Shown: one piece after another, positions 867 through 7,904 of the stretch
How positions within the stretch are numbered: the stretch's first letter is position 1
Layout: the number at the start of each line of letters is the position of its first letter
Source: a virus
DNA: 10,143 nt
Direction: 5' to 3' (one strand)
UHGV virus genome: UHGV-2042139
Translations under genes and position numbers: made by a program
The notes under the pieces: generated by a model
What the model was told of the DNA's origin: nothing
What the model saw: the letters and a program-made list of their open reading frames with translations, nothing else
Database searches by the model: none

Positions 867-3599
867 TTAATTTGCAAGCTTATTTTCCAGTTCTTCAATC
901 CTCTTTATAATATTTTTCTGACGTATACCTAATGCAGCAATCATTAGATACTGTAATTCATCATTTCTGAATGCATAGCGTTCTCCTGCTTCATGCGTAA
1001 TAGTTATAGCCTCACGAACAAGGTTACCTTCATCATCATAAACAGCTGGATCTGTATCTGTATATGCATCCCATCTGTCATAGCAGATCGCTCCGTATTT
1101 AAATGGATCAAGTCCATTCTCTCTGAATATTTCCATTGCCCGTTGCACCGTAAGTCCGGCATGAAGTCTGGCATCAGCTCCCTTATTTTTTACACTATCA
1201 AGCCATTGATAAAAACCAATTTCATCAACAAGAGCTAACCCAACCGCCTGCTCTTTATCGGAAAGAGTTCTGACTTCCGTTTTCTCTGTTGCATCAGATG
1301 TATTTATAGTTGCAGTCCCTGCGTAGACCTGAGAAAAGCGGTTAACGGACCTTCCAAGTGATACCTGGTTATCAGTTGTTGGCCTTAATGTCGTCGTCGC
1401 CCATGTCGATGTAGTATCTTTAGTCGCAGAAAATACTGTTACATTCCCCTGCTTAAGTCTGACGACACCTCCATCTGTAGAGGCAAGTATCAACTCACCA
1501 GCCGCAGATGGACAATCAGCAGCATGGATATCAATATAAGCACCACCCGCAGTATTCCCATCTTTAGAACGGAACTGCATACCTCGAAAGTTTGAGTCGA
1601 ATACTGCTTTCGTACTTACCCATGAATTATTGTCATGTCCGTAATCTGTATCAAACAGGTTAAGGTTATTTCCATAATTCAACTCGAGGGATTTGGTATA
1701 CTCTCCAATGGCTTCGTCAAATATCGCAATAGTAAATGAACCGTGCTCACGGTTAAAGGCGATATCAGTTCCAGCATAATATTGATGCGCGGTTCCGGTA
1801 TACGGATCGGATTCTGCACCATGCACTGGATGGTTGCCAAGAATATCAGACAGGTTTGCTATTCCAAACAGATGCTTATTTCTGCGAGTATAATCACCTG
1901 ATTTATATGTTGCGCCTGAATCCCATTCACCACTTGTCGCTGCAAGCGATGTTTTTAACCAATAAGACCTGTTTGTCGGAAGATTTCCCTTGTTATCACC
2001 AGTAACAATACTTACCCAATTTTTACCACGATGGCTTACAACATCCCCTGCGCTTTTCCATACATCCATAGCACCACAGACAAGTTCATCACCTCTTATT
2101 GCCAGCCCTTCAGGCTCAAAGCTAACCGGAACTCCGATTTTAGAGTCAGAACCATTTAACTGAGTCTCTGTATAAAGTGATGCGGCAAGTGATACAGGAA
2201 ATGAACGTATTAGCGTACCACCCATATCATAAATCTGTACTGTCCTTACGCATCTTGCAGGAACGCCACCCCAAATTGTGTAAATATATCTGCTATCTGA
2301 TGTAATACCCTGAAGTGTTGCACCATACTGACCTTTACCACGGACAAGTGGAACAGGACCATTAATCGGTCTAACTTTCATTGGGTTAGAAGAAGATTCC
2401 ACTTCTTTGCGATCATATACGTATAAAAAGCGGCCAGTCCCAGCGTTTGATGTCGCAATTAATATGACATATCGCCCATCATTAGATACACAAATACTTG
2501 CCCGCTGCGCAAGGTTAATCAGATTATTATCACCCGGCTCACCAAATACTCGGTAATGAGTTATATCTTCAGCAGATGTTGATGCCCCTTTCCATTTTGT
2601 CTTTGAATACCCCTTCCCTCCTAGAGAGGAACCAGTCTCAGCAATTGTTGTTGTAAACAGATATAGTTCACCGTTCTCTATTGTGGCAGAAAGATCTGAA
2701 CCGTGACCAAGAGGCAATGGCTCTGTAAATGTCACAACATAAAGAGTTGAACCATCGCTTGTATAGTGCCACTCACTGATCCTTGTGAGGGTGTCCGTTC
2801 CCCAGTTAGAACCTCCAACCTGTTGAGTGATAAAAACCTTCTCAATACCTTCATGCCTTACACAAGCTATTCCCTGCAATGCATTTTGTGCATTCGCATA
2901 TATAGTTGGCGCATTGATATCATCACCAAAATTCAGGGTCGCAAGTTTTCTTTGTCCAATGGAGAAACTTTGCATCGGCGGATTAACAGAAATGCGAACA
3001 CCATTACTGATTAGAACACCATCACCGGAGAAGCGTGAAATATCTATTTTCGATGCATCAACTATAAACTCACCAGAAGGCACATGAACCAAACCACTAT
3101 TTCCTGCGCTAGATGCGGCGTCAAGAAAAGCCTGTGTTGAATCTCTATTCCCAGAGTCATCCGCCCCCCACCCGCGAACGTCTTTATCATCCCGCCATCG
3201 TGCAATCTGTAATTCAGGGTATTTTTTAGCACCATCAGGATCTTCTAATTGCTGCCGTAACTGATCCGGGTCATACTTCAGCACATTCGGAAAATAGAAC
3301 TGCTGCGTACCATAAGCATCGTACACAGCCATAGAGTGTCCTTTCACAGTAACGAATTTGGCAATCTGTCCGTTATATACAGGATATCCAGCAGCATTGA
3401 TAACGATTGGTTGCGAAACAGGAACGTGAGAACCATCTTCATTCTCTACATAAACCTGAATCTGGTTTTCAGGATTTACAGGGTCAGTGTCAATTTTACC
3501 GATATAAATTTTTCCATTAGCTACGGCTTTAAAAGAACGAGCCATAGTGAAGAGTTGAGAAGGCATCCCAATTACAACATTTGGAGTTATATCAGGCAT
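867..3599 (-). CDS. Phage tailspike protein: P22 gp9-like N-terminal head-binding domain, divergent central receptor-binding/depolymerase body, C-terminal intramolecular-chaperone-like (peptidase S74-like) domain with terminal coiled coil
   Basis: N-terminus [59 protein letters not shown]...VLKYDPDQ matches the P22 tailspike head-binding domain ([43 protein letters not shown]...). C-terminal stretch [34 protein letters not shown]...[11 protein letters not shown]...IEELENKL resembles the autocleaving chaperone domain of endosialidase-type tailspikes, as recalled from memory. Start chosen at the ATG at 3599 (AGGA 8 nt upstream); an alternative ATG lies at 3608, and the ORF-track start at 3752 is an upstream extension with no homology. 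Confidence 0.85.
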
Positions 3600-3916
3600 A
3601 TTAGTCATCCTGTTTGAAAATTTAGATATTGAAGAAAACGGAATGACTGCAGACAAAGATGCAATTGTTTTGAAAAATAATCTTCTATTCACTTTAAAAC
3701 TATGCAACATGAACAAAACAATTATTTTACAACAAGCAAGAATCTTGATCAACAGACATATGCTTTATGCGTTTAATGCGTCACTTAAAAATAACAAGTA
3801 CTACTTTTATTCCTATCGTCCATGATTTTCATTTTCAAATATTATTAAATAACAATTCCTATTTATAATATCTGTCATTTAATCTGCTCCAGATAAAAGG
3901 AATCGCTGCAGCATTG

Positions 3917-3961
3917 CCACAGTGATGCATTATTAATCAAACAAAGAGACCACAGTGGTCT
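3917..3961. promoter_or_regulatory. Candidate operator region: 15-bp perfect palindrome plus an upstream CACAGTG core copy, in the tailspike-mnt intergenic region
   Basis: AGACCACAGTGGTCT at 3947-3961 is a perfect 7+1+7 palindrome about 70 bp upstream of the mnt ATG. A second copy of CCACAGTG lies at 3917-3924, with centres 33 bp apart. Promoter hexamers could not be assigned confidently by eye. Confidence 0.35.
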
Positions 3962-4024
3962 TATTGAGGATGCAACCAGCAGATAATAAGATGCCGATCC
4001 ACTCACAAAAGCGAGGCATCAAGA

Positions 4025-4276
4025 ATGGGAAGAGATGACCCGCAATTTAATCTGCGGCTACCTTACGAATTAAAGGAAAAACTAAAACAGCGAGCCAAAT
4101 CCAATTGCCGCTCTCTTAATTCAGAATTAGTTCAGATAGTGACTGATGCTGTATCAAAGCCATCCAAAATTTCAGGCTATCGAGACGATGCGGAACGAAT
4201 CGCTGATGAGCAGTCCGAACTTGTTAAGAAGATGGTGTTTGATACGCTGAAAGATTTGTACAAAAAACCCACCTGA
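4025..4276 (+). CDS. mnt: Mnt-type ribbon-helix-helix repressor (Arc/MetJ superfamily) with C-terminal tetramerisation coiled coil
   Basis: 83-aa ORF with GAGG 8 nt upstream of the ATG. MGRDDPQFNLRLPYELKEKLKQRAKSNCRSLNSELVQIV...YRDDAERIADEQSELVKKMVFDTLKDLYKKPT aligns along its full length with P22 Mnt as recalled (ARDDPHFNFRMPMEVREKLKFRAEANGRSMNSELLQIV...AERLADEQSELVKKMVFDTLKDLYKKTT). The N-terminal strand reads PQFNLR, as in P22 Arc. Confidence 0.85.
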   Translation: MGRDDPQFNLRLPYELKEKLKQRAKSNCRSLNSELVQIVTDAVSKPSKISGYRDDAERIADEQSELVKKMVFDTLKDLYKKPT

Positions 4277-4291
4277 TGGTGGGTTCCATTT
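4261..4291. terminator. Bidirectional intrinsic terminator shared by the convergent mnt and lipoprotein genes
   Basis: Perfect 8-bp stem AACCCACC (4266-4273) / GGTGGGTT (4278-4285) with loop TGAT. It is flanked by an A-run on the left, giving a U-tract for the minus-strand transcript, and by CCATTTATT on the right. The mnt stop codon TGA sits in the loop. Confidence 0.6.
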
Positions 4292-4292
4292 A

Positions 4293-4712
4293 TTAGTCTT
4301 GCTTTGTGGACGGTATAAGTGATGCATTTGCCTCTTTTGGCTTCAAGGTATACATTCCACCATTAAATGGATCTACAGCAAGCCAACCAATTAACCCACC
4401 AAACACAAGGTTCCCACCAATATACCAACCATTAGCATTGGCTTTGATTGGCAGGGTAACTGGTTCATACCCATCCTTCTCCATAGTGATCTGGTAGCTC
4501 TTTTTGCCAAAATAGCTACCATCTGACTTGGCGAGCGTTACACCTTGTGGGGTCTTACCTTGCGCAACAATCACACCTGACTCATCTTTTACCTTAAAGC
4601 TCGCGCCAGAAGGATTGCTGTTCACTTGCACAAGTTGCGTTTCATCACCAACAATAGTTGCGCACCCAGATAACATGATAACGCCAGCAACGACGCTAAT
4701 AATCCTCTTCAT
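4293..4712 (-). CDS. Lipoprotein with PEGA-like beta domain and C-terminal glycine-zipper segment; function unknown (candidate superinfection-exclusion or envelope protein)
   Basis: Signal peptide with lipobox (MKRIISVVAGVIMLSGC), then a PEGA-like pattern (VQVNSNPSGASFKVKDESGVIVAQGKTPQGVTL...GYEPVTLPIKA) and GGNLVFGGLIGWL. Start taken at the internal ATG at 4712 (lipoprotein signal begins there); the ORF-track start at 4745 would add an acidic 11-residue extension. Ends 7 nt before the terminator hairpin. Confidence 0.7.
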   Translation of the reverse strand: MKRIISVVAGVIMLSGCATIVGDETQLVQVNSNPSGASFKVKDESGVIVAQGKTPQGVTLAKSDGSYFGKKSYQITMEKDGYEPVTLPIKANANGWYIGGNLVFGGLIGWLAVDPFNGGMYTLKPKEANASLIPSTKQD

Positions 4713-4830
4713 ATCAATTTCCATATTTAAAAAAAACGGAAACATCCTAATGACAAATCATTCAAATGTGAAGTAGGCAAAAGATGTTTACTTTTTTCAT
4801 GGTATCCTGCTCAAAACTAAGGAGGTTGGT

Positions 4831-5154: not shown

Positions 5155-5910
5155 TTACTCCTGTGCTATTCCGCTTAGCGACGCTACAATGCCAGCCCTC
5201 GCTAAGCGATTGAACTCTTCGTTTCCAACTGCATCACGTATTGCTTTTACGGCGGCTTTATTTGCCATAAATCTGCGTTCCGCCGCCGCTAATGCTTCTT
5301 TACTTCCGCCAGCTCTTACTGCTTTCGTGGCTTCCTGAACTGCTTTCTCTATCGCATATCGACCGCTACGCGTGGTGGCAATTTTAGATACAGCGCCTTT
5401 TAACCCGGCGCCAACTAAAGCACCTGCGGCAGCGCCTGCAATGCCCCCTCCTGCTCCACCAACAATGGCACCTGATGTTGAGTTGGCAATTGCATTTAAC
5501 ACTGTTGATGTGACGTTGGATAAACCGGCATCCAGATCGCGTAGTACATTGGCAGTTCTCCCTGTTCTTTCAATATACTGCTGAGGTTTCACTGCTGCTC
5601 TTGCAAGAGTGCCATATGCATCAGCAATTCTTCCAAGTTCTGAGGAATATCGGCTAATGGCTTTTACATTTTGTGGAGTGAGTATCTCTGCGATATGGTT
5701 AATTCCTGCTGCATCAGCTTTGCCACCACGTACACCATGCGAGATAGCATCTTGCAACATTGATGATATAGCAGGAACACGCTCTGATTCTGGCAGCGCG
5801 CGGATCATAGAATGGAACCCAGCAGGACCATTAAGACCTTTAATAGGATTCGACCCTAAGCGAGATATGCCATTCAAAGGAACTCGCCACAACGCGCTTG
5901 ATGATGCCAT
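5155..5910 (-). CDS. GC-rich Gly/Ala-rich hypothetical protein with glycine-zipper segment; possibly a 3' remnant of a larger virion (ejection-protein-like) gene or an intact membrane-active protein
   Basis: Uninterrupted 251-codon ORF containing GAIVGGAGGGIAGAAAGALVGAGLKGA. No convincing SD before the ATG at 5910. The opposite strand is broken into three same-frame ORFs with low-complexity Pro/Ala translations, consistent with the minus strand being the coding one. GC-rich sequence inflates ORF length, so confidence is moderate. Confidence 0.45.
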   Translation of the reverse strand: MASSSALWRVPLNGISRLGSNPIKGLNGPAGFHSMIRALPESERVPAISSMLQDAISHGVRGGKADAAGINHIAEILTPQNVKAISRYSSELGRIADAYGTLARAAVKPQQYIERTGRTANVLRDLDAGLSNVTSTVLNAIANSTSGAIVGGAGGGIAGAAAGALVGAGLKGAVSKIATTRSGRYAIEKAVQEATKAVRAGGSKEALAAAERRFMANKAAVKAIRDAVGNEEFNRLARAGIVASLSGIAQE

Positions 5911-5959
5911 TCACCAAGCCAAATACGTTTCAGCGATCTGGAAAAAGTTAGCTAAATAA
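5873..5959 (+). pseudogene. Possible 3'-terminal remnant of a DnaQ-like (DEDDh) 3'-5' exonuclease gene
   Basis: Plus-strand translation ends ...FKGTRHNALDDAIHQAKYVSAIWKKLAK, stopping at 5957-5959, 16 nt before the SD/ATG of the next operon gene. HNALDDA resembles the Exo III motif (H-x-A-x-x-D) of DEDDh exonucleases. No motifs I or II upstream. Partly antisense to the first codons of the 5155..5910 ORF. Confidence 0.2.
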
Positions 5960-5975
5960 TCAACAGGAGAAAACC

Positions 5976-6269
5976 ATGCCAGCGCCTCTGTATGGTGCGG
6001 ACGACGCGCGCCGCTGTTCCGGCAATTCCGTATCGGAGGTGCTGGATAAATTCAGAAAAAACTACGACCGGATAATGTCGCTACCGCAGGAAACGAAAGA
6101 GGAAAAGGAATTTCGCCACTGTATATGGCTTGCAGAGAAAGAAGAACGCGAGCGAATTTACCAGACATCAATCCAACCATTCCGCAAAGCCACATATACC
6201 CACTTCCCTGAAATTGACCCGCGCCTGCGTAATTACCGCTCACGTTATGGCGCTATCAGTAATGACTGA
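5976..6269 (+). CDS. Hypothetical protein, first gene of an early-region-type small-gene operon
   Basis: 97-aa ORF, ATG at 5976 with SD AGGAGA 5 nt upstream. No family recognised from the translation. Confidence 0.6.
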
Positions 6270-6279
6270 GGAATTTACC

Positions 6280-6444
6280 ATGAGAGGACTTGCATACAAT
6301 CCCGGCATTCTTCCGGCAGAAATGATTATTCGCCAACGCGTAAAGCCAATGCCATCGAGAGAGGAATTGCTTAAGAGAAATTCTTTTCCATCAGTAAATC
6401 AAAACAAATATCTGAATGCGATGTGGCGGAGTGGGAAGAAATGA
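6280..6444 (+). CDS. Small hypothetical protein (54 aa)
   Basis: ATG at 6280 with SD GAGGA 7 nt upstream, immediately after the stop of the preceding gene. The longer ORF-track version from 6130 overlaps the upstream gene out of frame and is rejected. Confidence 0.5.
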
Positions 6445-6962
6445 AACAAATGTCACTAATTGAGATGGATGGATTTCTGAAAGGTAAATGCATCCCACGA
6501 GATTTAAAGGTTAACGAAACAAACGCTGAATATCTTGTCCGTAAGTTCGGTGAACTTGAATCAAAACTCAACGAGCAGCGTGAGTATTACGAGGGCGTTA
6601 TCTCGGATGGGAGTAAGCGTATTGCTGAACTGGAGAAAAGCGAAGAGCAACTCATCAACGAGCTTGACCATGCTGAGTATGCTTTAGCTGATATGTACTT
6701 TGCAGCAACCGGGGATAGGTCTGAGTGGAGTAACTGTTTCAGTTTTTCAGATGCTGTCGATGCCGTGGTTGACAGAATTGCTGATTTAGAAGCTAAACAG
6801 CCATCGCCAGTAGTGCCGGAAGGACTGGTTAAAGCAGTGCGCTTCTATGAGCAGGTAAAACGTGAGAATCCGCCAGCCGAAACCGGAGCATGGAAAGACG
6901 CTGTTTACTGGGTGCTCAAAGAGGCTTGTCAGGTTGTAAACACTGGCATCAAAGGAGACTGA
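6441..6962 (+). CDS. Hypothetical protein with central coiled-coil region (173 aa)
   Basis: ATG at 6441 overlaps the upstream stop (ATGA at 6441-6444), indicating translational coupling. The ORF-track start at 6423 is a GTG. No family recognised. Confidence 0.6.
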
Positions 6963-6963
6963 T

Positions 6964-7173
6964 ATGGCTATTGCCGCAAGTTACACCATGCATCTCTATT
7001 GTGACTGCCGTCAGTGCACGGAAGGTGTATATCCAGTGCCAGACTTCGGTGAGTATATCGGTACGTCATGGGCTGGCTGTGCAAAAGAGGCGCGCAAGGA
7101 TGGCTGGCGAATAAGCAAAGACAAAACGCGTGCTTTTGCGCCCGGGCATAAAGTTTTGAGGATTAACAAATGA
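6964..7173 (+). CDS. Small Cys-containing hypothetical protein (69 aa), possible metal-binding
   Basis: ATG at 6964, one nucleotide after the upstream stop, with SD GGAG 6 nt upstream. Contains CDCRQC plus a further Cys. Confidence 0.55.
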   Translation: MAIAASYTMHLYCDCRQCTEGVYPVPDFGEYIGTSWAGCAKEARKDGWRISKDKTRAFAPGHKVLRINK

Positions 7174-7904
7174 CCACTATAACCAAAGAGCGACTGCTGA
7201 CAATCAAGCAGTGGCGCGAAACATACGGACCGGGTAGCAACGTTGTACTGCCAGCAGAAGAAGCGGAAGAACTGGCACGGATTGCTCTGGCATCGCTGGA
7301 AGCAAAACCAATAGGTGCATTCCACATTGCAGAACAGCAAGTTGACGGCACAAGTGACTACCTCAAGGATGGAGAATGGCCTATTGATAATGGAATTATT
7401 GAGGTCTACGCCGCTCCCCCCGTTCCAGTAGTACCGGAAGAAAAACCAATGCCTAACGCTCTAAGCATGCTTGAAAGAGAGATCACACAACTGATTGGTG
7501 ATGCGCAGGAAGCCACTGTTACTGGCTATGAGTTAATCGCTGAAGCTTGGCGTTTGATGGATGGACAAGACCCTAAAACCAGCGATTGGCATAGCAAGGC
7601 TTCGAAGTATTTAAATTCCAATATTGTAGAAAAAGTTGATGATGACCGTATTGATGCAATTAAGGCTGTTTTGCGTAGACTGGCTGGCAACTCTCCGGTA
7701 ACTCCGGATGGTTGGATAAGCTGTAGTGAGCGAATGCCAGATGATGGTCAGCACGTAATTATTTTATGTGATGGCGCATTCGTTCTTTATGCGCAATATC
7801 GAGACGGTGAGTTTTTTGATGTTGTCCGCAATGGTGAGGAGTTCTTCGAAACGCAGAGCCGCAATGTAACCCACTGGATGCCGCTACCAGAACCGCCGCT
7901 CTGA
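7170..7904 (+). CDS. Prophage early-region protein with DUF551-like C-terminal domain
   Basis: ATG at 7170 overlaps the upstream stop (ATGA), with SD GAGGA 8 nt upstream. The C-terminus DGWISCSERMPDDGQHVIILCDG...VTHWMPLPEPP matches the DUF551 signature as I recall it. Confidence 0.7.
   Translation: MTTITKERLLTIKQWRETYGPGSNVVLPAEEAEELARIALASLEAKPIGAFHIAEQQVDGTSDYLKDGEWPIDNGIIEVYAAPPVPVVPEEKPMPNALSMLEREITQLIGDAQEATVTGYELIAEAWRLMDGQDPKTSDWHSKASKYLNSNIVEKVDDDRIDAIKAVLRRLAGNSPVTPDGWISCSERMPDDGQHVIILCDGAFVLYAQYRDGEFFDVVRNGEEFFETQSRNVTHWMPLPEPPL

Follow-up and report, generated by a model that had tools for sequence, protein, structure and literature searches.

A Q-class Mnt repressor gene and its predicted operator beside the tailspike gene of a defective P22-like prophage

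What does a Mnt repressor regulate where arc and ant are absent and its divergent neighbour is the tailspike gene? The window, that is, the whole stretch of 10,143 nucleotides of viral DNA analysed here, raises this question with an mnt gene on the plus strand that adjoins a tailspike gene on the minus strand, separated by an intergenic gap of 425 bp (3600-4024; tailspike ATG at 3599-3597). The answer we favour, with a probability of roughly 0.7, is a cognate Mnt-family repressor-operator pair of a class that we name the Q-class (the common PQFNLR specificity class of Mnt), for which autoregulation of mnt in cis would be the most likely action. The genes and the hairpin at the end of mnt are:

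4025-4276, plus strand: mnt gene, Q-class, 83 aa (ORF translation MGRDDPQFNLRLPYELKEKLKQRAKSNCRSLNSELVQIVTDAVSKPSKISGYRDDAERIADEQSELVKKMVFDTLKDLYKKPT; Pfam domains, alignments)
867-3599, minus strand: tailspike gene with a P22-type head-binding domain, a different receptor-binding part and a C-terminal S74 chaperone domain (domain search)
4266-4285, unstranded: G+C-rich hairpin overlapping the mnt stop, with an A-run before and a T-rich stretch after it (terminator scan)

The hairpin is likely a terminator in both directions; at the same place the phage L record has terminators annotated on both strands.

The family assignment was based on the Pfam models PF03869 (Arc domain) and PF11423 (Repressor_Mnt). 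The protein possesses an N-terminal ribbon-helix-helix DNA-binding domain (Arc match, residues 3-50, E 4.4e-21) and a C-terminal tetramerisation helix (Repressor_Mnt match, residues 53-80, E 2.2e-18). Together with 75% identity to P22 Mnt over all 83 residues, these matches confirm the first-pass annotation, which had described a full-length Mnt including the tetramerisation helix. The protein also matches the PDB entries 1MNT (E 4.3e-33) and 1QEY (tetramerisation helix, 28/31 residues identical). Alignment to P22 Mnt (PHFNFR) and Arc (PQFNLR) likewise bore out the reading of the N-terminal strand as PQFNLR and not PHFNFR; its context is RDDPQFNLR. Among the base-contacting residues of P22 Mnt, R2, N8 and R10 are kept, while His6 is replaced by Gln and Phe9 by Leu. 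An Arc-type operator does not follow from this "Arc-type strand": the site described below keeps the Mnt core CCAC-N-GTGG. PQFNLR is the majority strand of the Mnt family itself (92/120 homologs).

For Q-class mnt, dN/dS amounts to 0.08-0.13; in four genera whose synonymous sites are saturated, residues 1-35 hardly vary. The window gene is mosaic, with a Q-class N-domain joined to a C-domain like that of P22. Its codon 28 (4106-4108, TGC) encodes Cys, by which the turn between the two helices reads N-C-R-S against the conserved N-G-R-S. This Cys is private to the window copy among 67 Q-class copies, and Gly occupies the position in 112/120 homologs. With the exchange of Gly for Cys, the window copy may be impaired or inactive. 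Two of the 67 copies are truncated to 52 aa.

Neither arc nor ant was detected across the whole 10-kb window by tblastn with P22 Arc and P22 Ant as queries, and none of the gap ORFs of at least 20 aa is Arc-like or Ant-like. Coordinates, tblastn and ORF list thus agree with the earlier description of a 425-bp gap without an arc or ant ORF. An Rfam E-value scan of 3300-4800 did not find the sar RNA and gave two sub-threshold, unrelated matches only. Flanked by the gene 16 homolog and the tailspike gene, the locus is placed like a complete P22-type immI region, of which arc, ant, sar and a strong Pant are missing. The prophage to which the window belongs is a defective remnant, with a truncated gp16 gene and without head, lysis, replication or c2 genes.

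Comparison loci were taken from viral contigs and from E. coli genomes, and others were looked up by exact protein; a scan of genome contigs with the Mnt protein had confirmed none. The mnt-operator-tailspike layout is kept in Escherichia, Salmonella, Klebsiella and Serratia, and its arc/ant-less form is found in the viable phages L, ST64T, ST160, SE1 and Gally. The window locus is this common arc/ant-less P22-Mnt form beside a tailspike gene and largely ordinary. Judged by sequence comparison, the arc/ant-less state is old, is kept by selection in many intact P22-like phages and is no local collapse, because the layout is conserved in four genera, dN/dS is ~0.1 and the arrangement has been described in phages L, ST64T and ST104. 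The same observations, with the operator retained throughout the four genera, speak, for the lineage, against the initial proposal of a leftover from a collapsed immI region.

Three features on the mnt side of the gap carry the argument for an operator:

3947-3961, unstranded: predicted Mnt operator, homolog of P22 Omnt, AGACCAC-A-GTGGTCT (palindrome, position, conservation)
3964-3992, plus strand: predicted mnt promoter, -35 TTGAGG (3964-3969), 17-bp spacer, -10 TAAGAT (3987-3992) (P22 alignment, conservation)
3969-3997, minus strand: equivalent of P22 Pant (TTGACA-17-TATATT in P22), here TCGGCA-17-TGCATC, decayed (alignment, variants)

Re-reading of 3947-3961 verified the perfect 15-bp palindrome reported at first, AGACCACAGTGGTCT, with a 7+1+7 geometry. 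GACCACNGTGGTC occurs a single time in the window even when two mismatches are allowed (shuffle mean 0.18), and a simple arithmetic estimate gives ~0.03 expected palindromes of this kind in 425 bp. The palindrome is centred at 3954. From this centre, the mnt ATG is 71 bp and the predicted start of mnt transcription ~45 bp downstream; the palindrome ends 2 bp from the predicted mnt -35, which places a two-fold symmetric site beside the gene's own promoter. In the alignment its position matches the P22 operator AGGTCCACCGTGGACCT, with a shared flank TATTGAG and shared promoter hexamers. The P22-type operator GGTCCAC-N-GTGGACC itself has no match anywhere in the window with up to three mismatches, and the gap contains no Arc-operator-like sequence or TAGA-box.

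The palindrome turned out to be conserved across genera when homologous loci were compared. The arms are kept, the outer flank has diverged and the centre base is free (T24/C21/A14/G8), resulting in the footprint of a two-armed site. Phage L has it intact, and so do Klebsiella and Serratia with their saturated synonymous sites; ST160 and Gally each have one copy per genome. The palindrome is almost certainly Mnt's own, slightly altered operator, as far as position and conservation allow prediction.

The predicted mnt promoter corresponds to TTGAGA-17-TATCAT of P22. Both hexamers are conserved across 38 distinct sequences in four genera; the match to consensus (8/12 positions) is below the threshold of the promoter scan. 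The assignment may be incomplete, since an invariant inverted repeat GATGCC...GGCATC (3990-3995, 4013-4018) overlaps the predicted -10. The Pant equivalent matches the consensus at 6/12 positions in the window and at best 8/12 in relatives. Its -10 ends in C in every Q-class variant (TGCATC, TGTATC, TATATC, TATAAC) and never in T.

In 86 related loci the class of the DNA-reading strand and the class of the site covary. All 67 loci of the PQFNLR class are without arc and ant and have the site GACCAC-N-GTGGTC, perfect in 61 and with one mismatch in the other six. Loci of the PHFNFR class number 19; arc and ant are present in every one, and the homologous position is occupied by GGTCCAC-N-GTGGACC in 15. 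This covariation supports an altered operator specificity of Q-class Mnt, and thereby the first-pass prediction that the protein would read a different operator from P22 Mnt. An exact-pattern operator scan of viral contigs returned mostly chance matches (Mnt, Arc, Ant or the tailspike head-binding domain had a relative at 29 of 119 loci) and uncovered L099, L125 and L128, which pair this strand type with the Q-class site independently. L099 has a full mnt-arc-ant region, with the start of Pant (TTGACA-17-CATTAT) covered by AGACCACGGTGGTCT, a Q-class site. In L125 and L128, an EDPQFKLR protein is preceded by three tandem copies of the Q-class site. A third class, AQFHLR, is accompanied by a different palindrome at the same place. 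In E. coli, the nearest approach to a full immunity region of the Q-class, the FREC5 type (NDPQFNVR), proved to belong to yet another specificity class. It has Gln yet a different site, so Gln6 alone is insufficient to fix the operator.

For P22 Mnt, the best half-site is GTGGACC (PMC2726951). The change of one Mnt residue shifts the preference at two adjacent operator positions (PMC1184061), and operator positions 16 and 17 are those mutated systematically (PMC1131891). Given the homology, position, conservation and covariation described above, a Mnt tetramer would bind the palindrome GACCAC-N-GTGGTC. The main difference between the Q-class site and the P22 half-site is the fifth base counted from the centre (A to T), and this change is accompanied by that of His6 to Gln in the DNA-reading strand. 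Because the site directly adjoins the -35 of the weak mnt promoter, an arrangement shared with P22, autoregulation of mnt is the most likely action in cis. The P22 precedent would point to stimulation, and repression seems equally possible. For the function of Mnt we infer autoregulation, possibly together with immunity in trans; any role beyond mnt itself is likewise inferred.

The tailspike side of the gap has a separate history, recorded in the following features:

3906-3922, minus strand: conserved RNA hairpin, sense CUGUGGC-AAU-GCUGCAG, of the ancestral tailspike leader (covariation)
3868-3878, minus strand: fossil start of the ancestral tailspike gene, ATGACAGATAT, reading MTDI... (homology to the gene 9 start)
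3601-3867, minus strand: AT-rich non-coding insert, 26.6% G+C, 267 bp, from the fossil start to the real tailspike ATG (alignment, variants)

A second CCACAGTG core had been noticed in the gap. Its presence (3917-3924) and its spacing of 33 bp from the copy at 3950-3957 were confirmed; its implied role was not, as this copy is not conserved and is one arm of the RNA hairpin at 3906-3922, which contains most of it. The core was therefore rejected as a second operator or half-site. In the hairpin, 96.4% of cells are paired, four of the seven pairs have changed on both sides, and 0/500 shuffles reach its score. Its G-U pairs fit the minus strand only, and it was lost in 4/32 variants via an 11-nt deletion. 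The fossil start and the sequence upstream of it are homologous to the start of gene 9 and its upstream region in P22 and ST160; today it opens an ORF of 21 codons only. The insert accompanies this tailspike allele, including the arc/ant-bearing locus L006 and phage JEP4. It holds promoter-like hexamers directed at the tailspike gene (TTGATC-17-TAAAAT, 3752-3724), which 11 variants with differing spacers share unchanged. A 60-codon ORF (3643-3825, plus strand) and a 21-codon minus-strand ORF in the insert were rejected as genes, as indels in variants break their frames.

Expression data are available for the near-identical prophage Gally. RNA-seq revealed that mnt and the tailspike gene rise together while late genes are at background (PMC9928086). 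Specifically, tailspike RNA increases ~20-fold in macrophages together with mnt, whereas the late gene 12 upstream does not rise above background (PMC9928086 S1 Table), which suggests that some late-independent transcription enters the tailspike gene. Regulation of mnt itself is 40-fold, its level in LB culture is at background, and its deletion had no effect on macrophage survival, the only assay performed (PMC9928086). The pattern of the two genes is co-induction, not repression.

This pattern bears directly on the proposal that the operator controls a leftward tailspike promoter, by which Mnt would set late-independent expression of the tailspike in lysogens. We consider such control unlikely, even though the site is located where P22 Omnt covers the Pant start, is only ~60-70 bp from the tailspike ATG in most Q-class loci, and has kept its place between the two genes in four genera, and even though the tailspike of Gally is induced over a gene 12 at background. 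The hexamers equivalent to Pant have decayed, and their spacing is shifted in Serratia. Promoter scans of the window and of Gally revealed no tailspike-directed promoter at or beside the operator. The only candidate in the window (3752-3724) is ~200 bp beyond the operator, within an insert that is also present in arc/ant loci. Moreover, a joint rise of mnt and tailspike is the opposite of repression, and read-through from the highly expressed, co-directional gene 14 could explain it. The first-pass idea that Mnt controls a promoter reading into the tailspike gene was accordingly not upheld: no conserved sigma-70 promoter overlaps the operator, and the 267-bp insert separates the operator from the tailspike start. 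Action in trans is somewhat less improbable, though still doubtful as the main role. Mnt of a P22 prophage represses ant of a superinfecting P22, and a Q-class prophage might similarly silence the antirepressor promoter of incoming relatives of the same operator class and be protected against induction. In favour of this, L099 is a complete mnt-arc-ant region in which a Q-class site covers the Pant start. Furthermore, CUS-3-type loci keep a P22-class Mnt that makes sense only for action in trans, because no P22-class operator exists within 2.5 kb on either side. However, L099 is the one full Q-class region among ~200 loci examined, mnt is at background in LB-grown Gally lysogens, and a role in trans leaves the strong conservation of the cis operator unexplained.

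Decay of gene and palindrome as a functionless leftover of a collapsed immunity region is improbable for the lineage, although the window copy invites this interpretation with its truncated gp16 gene, its defective prophage and its private Gly to Cys exchange. The two truncated copies, the six operators with a mismatch and the inconspicuous mnt deletion in Gally point in the same direction. These are outweighed by the low dN/dS, the almost invariant residues 1-35 at saturated synonymous sites, operator arms that are kept amid diverged flanks, the occurrence of the arrangement in viable phages and the 40-fold regulation of mnt in Gally. Least credible of all is a role of the palindrome in RNA, as hairpin or terminator of the tailspike-sense strand, in place of one as a protein site. 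The terminator scan does list it as terminator-like on the minus strand, followed by CTTTGTTTGA, and likewise in Gally. Yet the ST160, L, Klebsiella and Serratia types have no T-rich tail, the 1-nt centre means that the stem must open to make a loop, and none of the six single mismatches is compensated on the other arm. In addition, the homologous P22 site is a biochemically defined Mnt operator, and the class of the site follows the DNA-reading strand of the protein. The preferred reading thus remains the repressor-operator pair with autoregulation of mnt. The 20- to 40-fold joint induction in macrophages in Gally suggests a wider and distinctly speculative role, in which Q-class Mnt, operator and tailspike might form a conserved, late-operon-independent lysogen unit; from its place between the two genes, bound Mnt would co-ordinate itself, the tailspike and neighbouring accessory genes according to host conditions. 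Equally speculative is a stand-alone immunity factor against antirepressor-carrying relatives.

For annotation, the gene becomes readable as a Mnt-family repressor with a defined predicted operator. Prophages of E. coli, Salmonella, Klebsiella and Serratia carry it in their hundreds, frequently under the wrong label of "partition protein ATPase" or "HicB antitoxin". The three strand classes, each with a matched palindrome at the same promoter position, provide a natural specificity series for the classic model of DNA recognition by a beta-sheet; in the His6 to Gln class, the operator is altered at one of the positions on which residue 6 has a known influence. For phage L, the question what role Mnt plays without an antirepressor had already been raised, and the Gally mnt deletion strain and RNA-seq make it directly testable.

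Compared with Mnt and Omnt of P22 immI (PDB 1MNT, 1QEY), the window protein has the same length (83 aa), 75% identity, the same ribbon-helix-helix N-domain and a near-identical tetramerisation helix (28/31 residues), and the site has the same core CCAC-N-GTGG at equal distance from mnt, directly upstream of its -35. It differs in Gln for His6 and Leu for Phe9, in the half-site (GTGGTCT in the window, GTGGACC in P22), in the absence of arc, ant, sar and a usable Pant, and in the divergent neighbour of mnt, which is the tailspike gene in the window and arc in P22. P22 Arc is of the same fold family (42% identity over 45 residues) and has an identical strand, PQFNLR. In contrast to the window protein with its 83 aa and Mnt C-domain, Arc has 53 aa and no tetramerisation helix; its N-terminal arm is MKGMSKM, whereas that of the window protein is the Mnt-like GRDD, and its operator contains TAGA boxes, which have no counterpart in the window gap.

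By its arrangement, the window locus is the "mnt-only ant moron" described for the Salmonella phages L, ST64T and ST104 (Villafane 2008, PMC2629481; Zaworski 2020, PMC8022706), a gene that according to this literature "could have acquired another function or be a remnant". The window differs by its extra 267-bp AT-rich insert (gap of 425 bp versus ~135-147 bp), by a P22-type C-terminal helix where phage L has another type, and by its defective prophage and the Gly to Cys exchange in Mnt. With these phages, as well as with SE1, ST160 and the E. coli phage Gally, it shares the Q-class N-domain (MGRDDPQFNLRLPYELKEK...), the position with gene 16 on one side and gene 9 on the other, the divergence of mnt from the tailspike gene, the lack of arc and ant, a site 71 bp before the mnt ATG and, as compared with phage L, the operator itself (AAGACCACGGTGGTCTT in phage L).

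Along its whole length the mnt product (83 aa; Pfam Arc, E 4.4e-21; Repressor_Mnt, E 2.2e-18) shows 75% identity to P22 Mnt; it also matches the structure of the Mnt N-domain (1MNT) and shares 28 of 31 residues with the tetramerisation helix 1QEY. These matches bear out the first-pass annotation, which had called the protein Mnt-like throughout, C-terminal helix included. Its N-terminal strand was re-read as PQFNLR, as in P22 Arc and unlike the PHFNFR of P22 Mnt, yet identity to Arc is only 42% over 45 residues. Compared with P22, the N-domain has diverged (pN 0.24) whereas the C-domain hardly differs (pN 0.04), which makes the window mnt gene a mosaic in its own right. Many Mnt genes go under the name "partition protein ATPase" in RefSeq phage records, or under "HicB family antitoxin" in protein sources; each label misannotates a ribbon-helix-helix repressor.

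With the tailspike start at 3599 on the minus strand, the gap to mnt measures 425 bp. P22 Arc and Ant were not found in the window by tblastn, no gap ORF resembled either, and an Rfam scan returned no sar RNA, in agreement with the earlier description of a gap devoid of arc and ant. The gap is a mosaic, with these features in and beside it:

3601-3867: AT-rich insert (267 bp, 26.6% G+C) between the fossil start and the real tailspike ATG
3752-3724, minus strand: promoter-like hexamers TTGATC-17-TAAAAT within the insert, ~200 bp beyond the operator
3868-3925: gene 9 homology, covering 11 nt at the start of P22 gene 9 and its upstream leader
3878-3868, minus strand: fossil tailspike start ATGACAGATAT, now opening a 21-codon ORF only
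3906-3922, minus strand (tailspike-sense): RNA hairpin of 7 bp, lying ~25 nt ahead of the ancestral tailspike start
3917-3924: second operator-like core, CCACAGTG
3926-4024: mnt control region, common to phages ST160, SE1, vB_EcoP-720R6, and Gally
3947-3961: palindrome AGACCACAGTGGTCT
4025-4276, plus strand: mnt ORF

The reported 15-bp palindrome proved perfect (7+1+7), and a search of the window allowing two mismatches gave no second occurrence of its pattern. The P22 layout is AGGTCCACCGTGGACCT-ATTGAGA-17 bp-TATCAT, with the centre 66 bp ahead of the mnt ATG, and that of the window is AGACCACAGTGGTCT-TATTGAGG-17 bp-TAAGAT, with the centre 71 bp ahead. This match places the palindrome at the position of the P22 Mnt operator, Omnt, 2 bp from the -35 equivalent to that of the mnt promoter, Pmnt; it is the predicted homolog of that operator. 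Omnt covers the start of the ant promoter, Pant, and Mnt represses Pant and stimulates Pmnt. Arc represses both promoters in P22 (PMC2724298). Across 38 distinct upstream sequences, the arms of the site were conserved, the centre was free, and the outer flank was poorly conserved. No Arc-type or P22-type operator was found in the window gap; the palindromic operator was found once each in the ST160 and Gally genomes. An inverted repeat, GATGCC...GGCATC (3990-3995 and 4013-4018), is invariant in all loci of the PQFNLR strand class (Q class), including Serratia. It spans the end of the predicted -10 to the mnt ribosome-binding site, and the mnt promoter assignment may thus be incomplete.

Covariation of strand and site was explored in 86 loci, 80 of them IMG/VR contigs and the rest the window and reference phages. 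None of the 67 GRDDPQFNLR copies has arc or ant, and all of them face the tailspike gene. GACCAC-N-GTGGTC is perfect in 61 of these loci and carries one mismatch in the other six, its centre lying 71 bp ahead of the ATG in every case (centre base T24/C21/A14/G8). Arc and ant are present with 19/19 ARDDPHFNFR copies (P22 class), and GGTCCAC-N-GTGGACC stands at the homologous position in 15 of them. The remaining four are of the type of phage CUS-3, with Mnt as second gene of a two-gene operon and no P22-class operator within 2.5 kb on either side. In L072-L074, L082, and L219 (CUS-3), a P22-class Mnt comes second after a different ribbon-helix-helix gene. The best half-site of P22 Mnt is GTGGACC (PMC2726951), whereas that of the Q class is GTGGTCT; the two differ consistently at the fifth base from the centre, position 16 of a 21-bp site centred at 11. 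PMC1131891 gives positions 16 and 17 as those varied by Stormo's group, and according to PMC1184061 one residue change in Mnt moves the preference at two adjacent operator positions; both papers refer here to the 'master residue' studies.

Further strand types were found with their own sites. Locus L099 holds, in order, a Q-strand Mnt-like gene, TTGACA-17-CATTAT, AGACCACGGTGGTCT at the promoter start, and arc-like and ant genes; it is a complete Q-class immunity region. In the high-G+C viral contigs L125 (7680-7745) and L128 (8160-8240), the gene for a 146-aa ribbon-helix-helix protein (MSREDPQFKLRMP...) is preceded by GACCACNGTGGTC-like sites in three tandem copies, which extends the strand-site pairing beyond P22-like phages. 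A third Mnt class (YDEAQFHLR, i.e. AQFHLR) in phages JEP4 (L004 4440-4470) and Sf101 (L220 2400-2440) likewise neighbours the tailspike gene, arc and ant being absent, and has TACCG-AAN-CGGTA at the Omnt position. FREC5, with strand NDPQFNVR, has yet another site, and residue 6 is therefore not the sole determinant.

The second core, 33 bp from the palindrome, is present as reported, but its proposed operator role was rejected: the position varies across loci (CCACAGTG, CCGCAGTG, CTACGGCA, CTGCAGTG, and further variants) and is explained by a covarying hairpin of the ancestral tailspike leader. In this hairpin 96.4% of cells were paired, both sides had changed in 4/7 pairs, and the score was reached by no shuffle. 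Its G-U pairs become A-C mismatches on the opposite strand, and compensatory changes extend across Escherichia, Salmonella, Klebsiella, and Serratia. No Rfam entry was found for it. P22 (L003 ~1436-1456) has the hairpin too, with the 3' half twice (TGGCTACGGTGAATTTT at ~1449 and ~1560).

The best-supported reading is a predicted pair of Mnt and cognate operator belonging to the common Q class, in which Mnt on the adjacent operator would autoregulate mnt. Control of the tailspike gene by Mnt, as proposed earlier, carries lower weight. The Pant-equivalent positions have decayed to TCGGCA-17-TGCATC in the window; in other loci the -10 is TGTATC, TATATC, or TATAAC and never ends in T, and spacing differs in Serratia. 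Promoter scans gave none at these positions in the window or in Gally, whose Mnt is 98.8% identical and whose operator is the same. In overnight LB cultures Gally mnt does not exceed background. In macrophages it rises 40-fold, along with three neighbouring genes and the tailspike gene (log2 fold change 4.4), while late gene 12, which lies upstream, remains at background; mnt deletion leaves bacterial survival there unchanged (PMC9928086). Some late-independent transcription thus reaches the Gally tailspike gene, which favours such control, but this transcription goes up with Mnt instead of dropping, and its source may be read-through from gene 14, which is strongly expressed and co-directional. 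GALLYPH_14 is among the top-expressed prophage genes, with additional induction in macrophages (PMC9928086 S1 Table); its window counterpart is a lipoprotein gene (4293-4712, minus) just past the mnt terminator, homologous to epsilon34 gene 15 with a weak PEGA-domain match. The only tailspike-directed candidate in the gap is the hexamer pair of the insert. Indels among 11 insert variants mark it as non-coding, and the invariant hexamers with variable spacer suggest a private promoter of this tailspike allele. The insert accompanies the allele, and is found in JEP4 too and in E. coli MS 16-3, the latter with arc and ant.

Immunity in trans, likewise of lower weight, draws on the CUS-3-type Mnt, which looks kept for such action because no P22-class operator lies nearby. 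Plain decay, also less favoured, is suggested by the window copy itself. Codon 28 (4106-4108) is TGC, so that Cys stands where the ribbon-helix-helix turn (N-G-R-S) has its conserved Gly, the sole case among 67 Q-class copies (Gly in 112/120 homologs). This change could impair the protein, consistent with its placement in a defective prophage; the window copy is possibly non-functional. For most of its length the window matches, at 100% identity, a prophage adjoining thrS in E. coli EC24, save 5843-7234, where EC24 holds a different, larger remnant. The element is a prophage remnant with acyltransferase, tailspike, mnt, lipoprotein gene, small ORF, and a gene 16 homolog (5155-5976) reduced to a 251-codon fragment, directly followed by abc2, Ea-type genes, and integrase. 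Head, lysis, replication, and c2 genes have been lost, and ~28 kb of P22-like genome is missing. The tailspike (867-3599) joins a P22 head-binding domain to an S74 chaperone domain of endosialidase type at the C-terminus, and a hexapeptide acyltransferase gene (1-711) comes next; the same pair adjoins thrS in MS 16-3.

The suggestion of a leftover of a collapsed immI region fits poorly with the wider lineage, and the arc/ant-less arrangement is best regarded as old and selected. Klebsiella and Serratia prophages share the layout, mnt being divergent from the tailspike gene across 146-148 bp, with operator, -35, -10, and ribosome-binding blocks intact and the remainder diverged. QFNLR strands predominate among 120 homologs (92, against 13 HFNFR). 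The Q-class N-domain is near-invariant in Escherichia, Salmonella, Klebsiella, Serratia, and Symbiopectobacterium, and is fused to several different C-terminal helices. The dN/dS ratio of the gene is 0.08-0.13, with synonymous sites close to saturation between genera. Phages L, ST64T, and ST104 carry the same Q-class gene and operator as the window. The arrangement is already on record, and the finding, real and correctly observed, is a further example of a described kind. The literature passages on mnt-only phages, as excerpted, make no mention of the operator class or its covariation with the recognition strand, and these two points are the modest new content.
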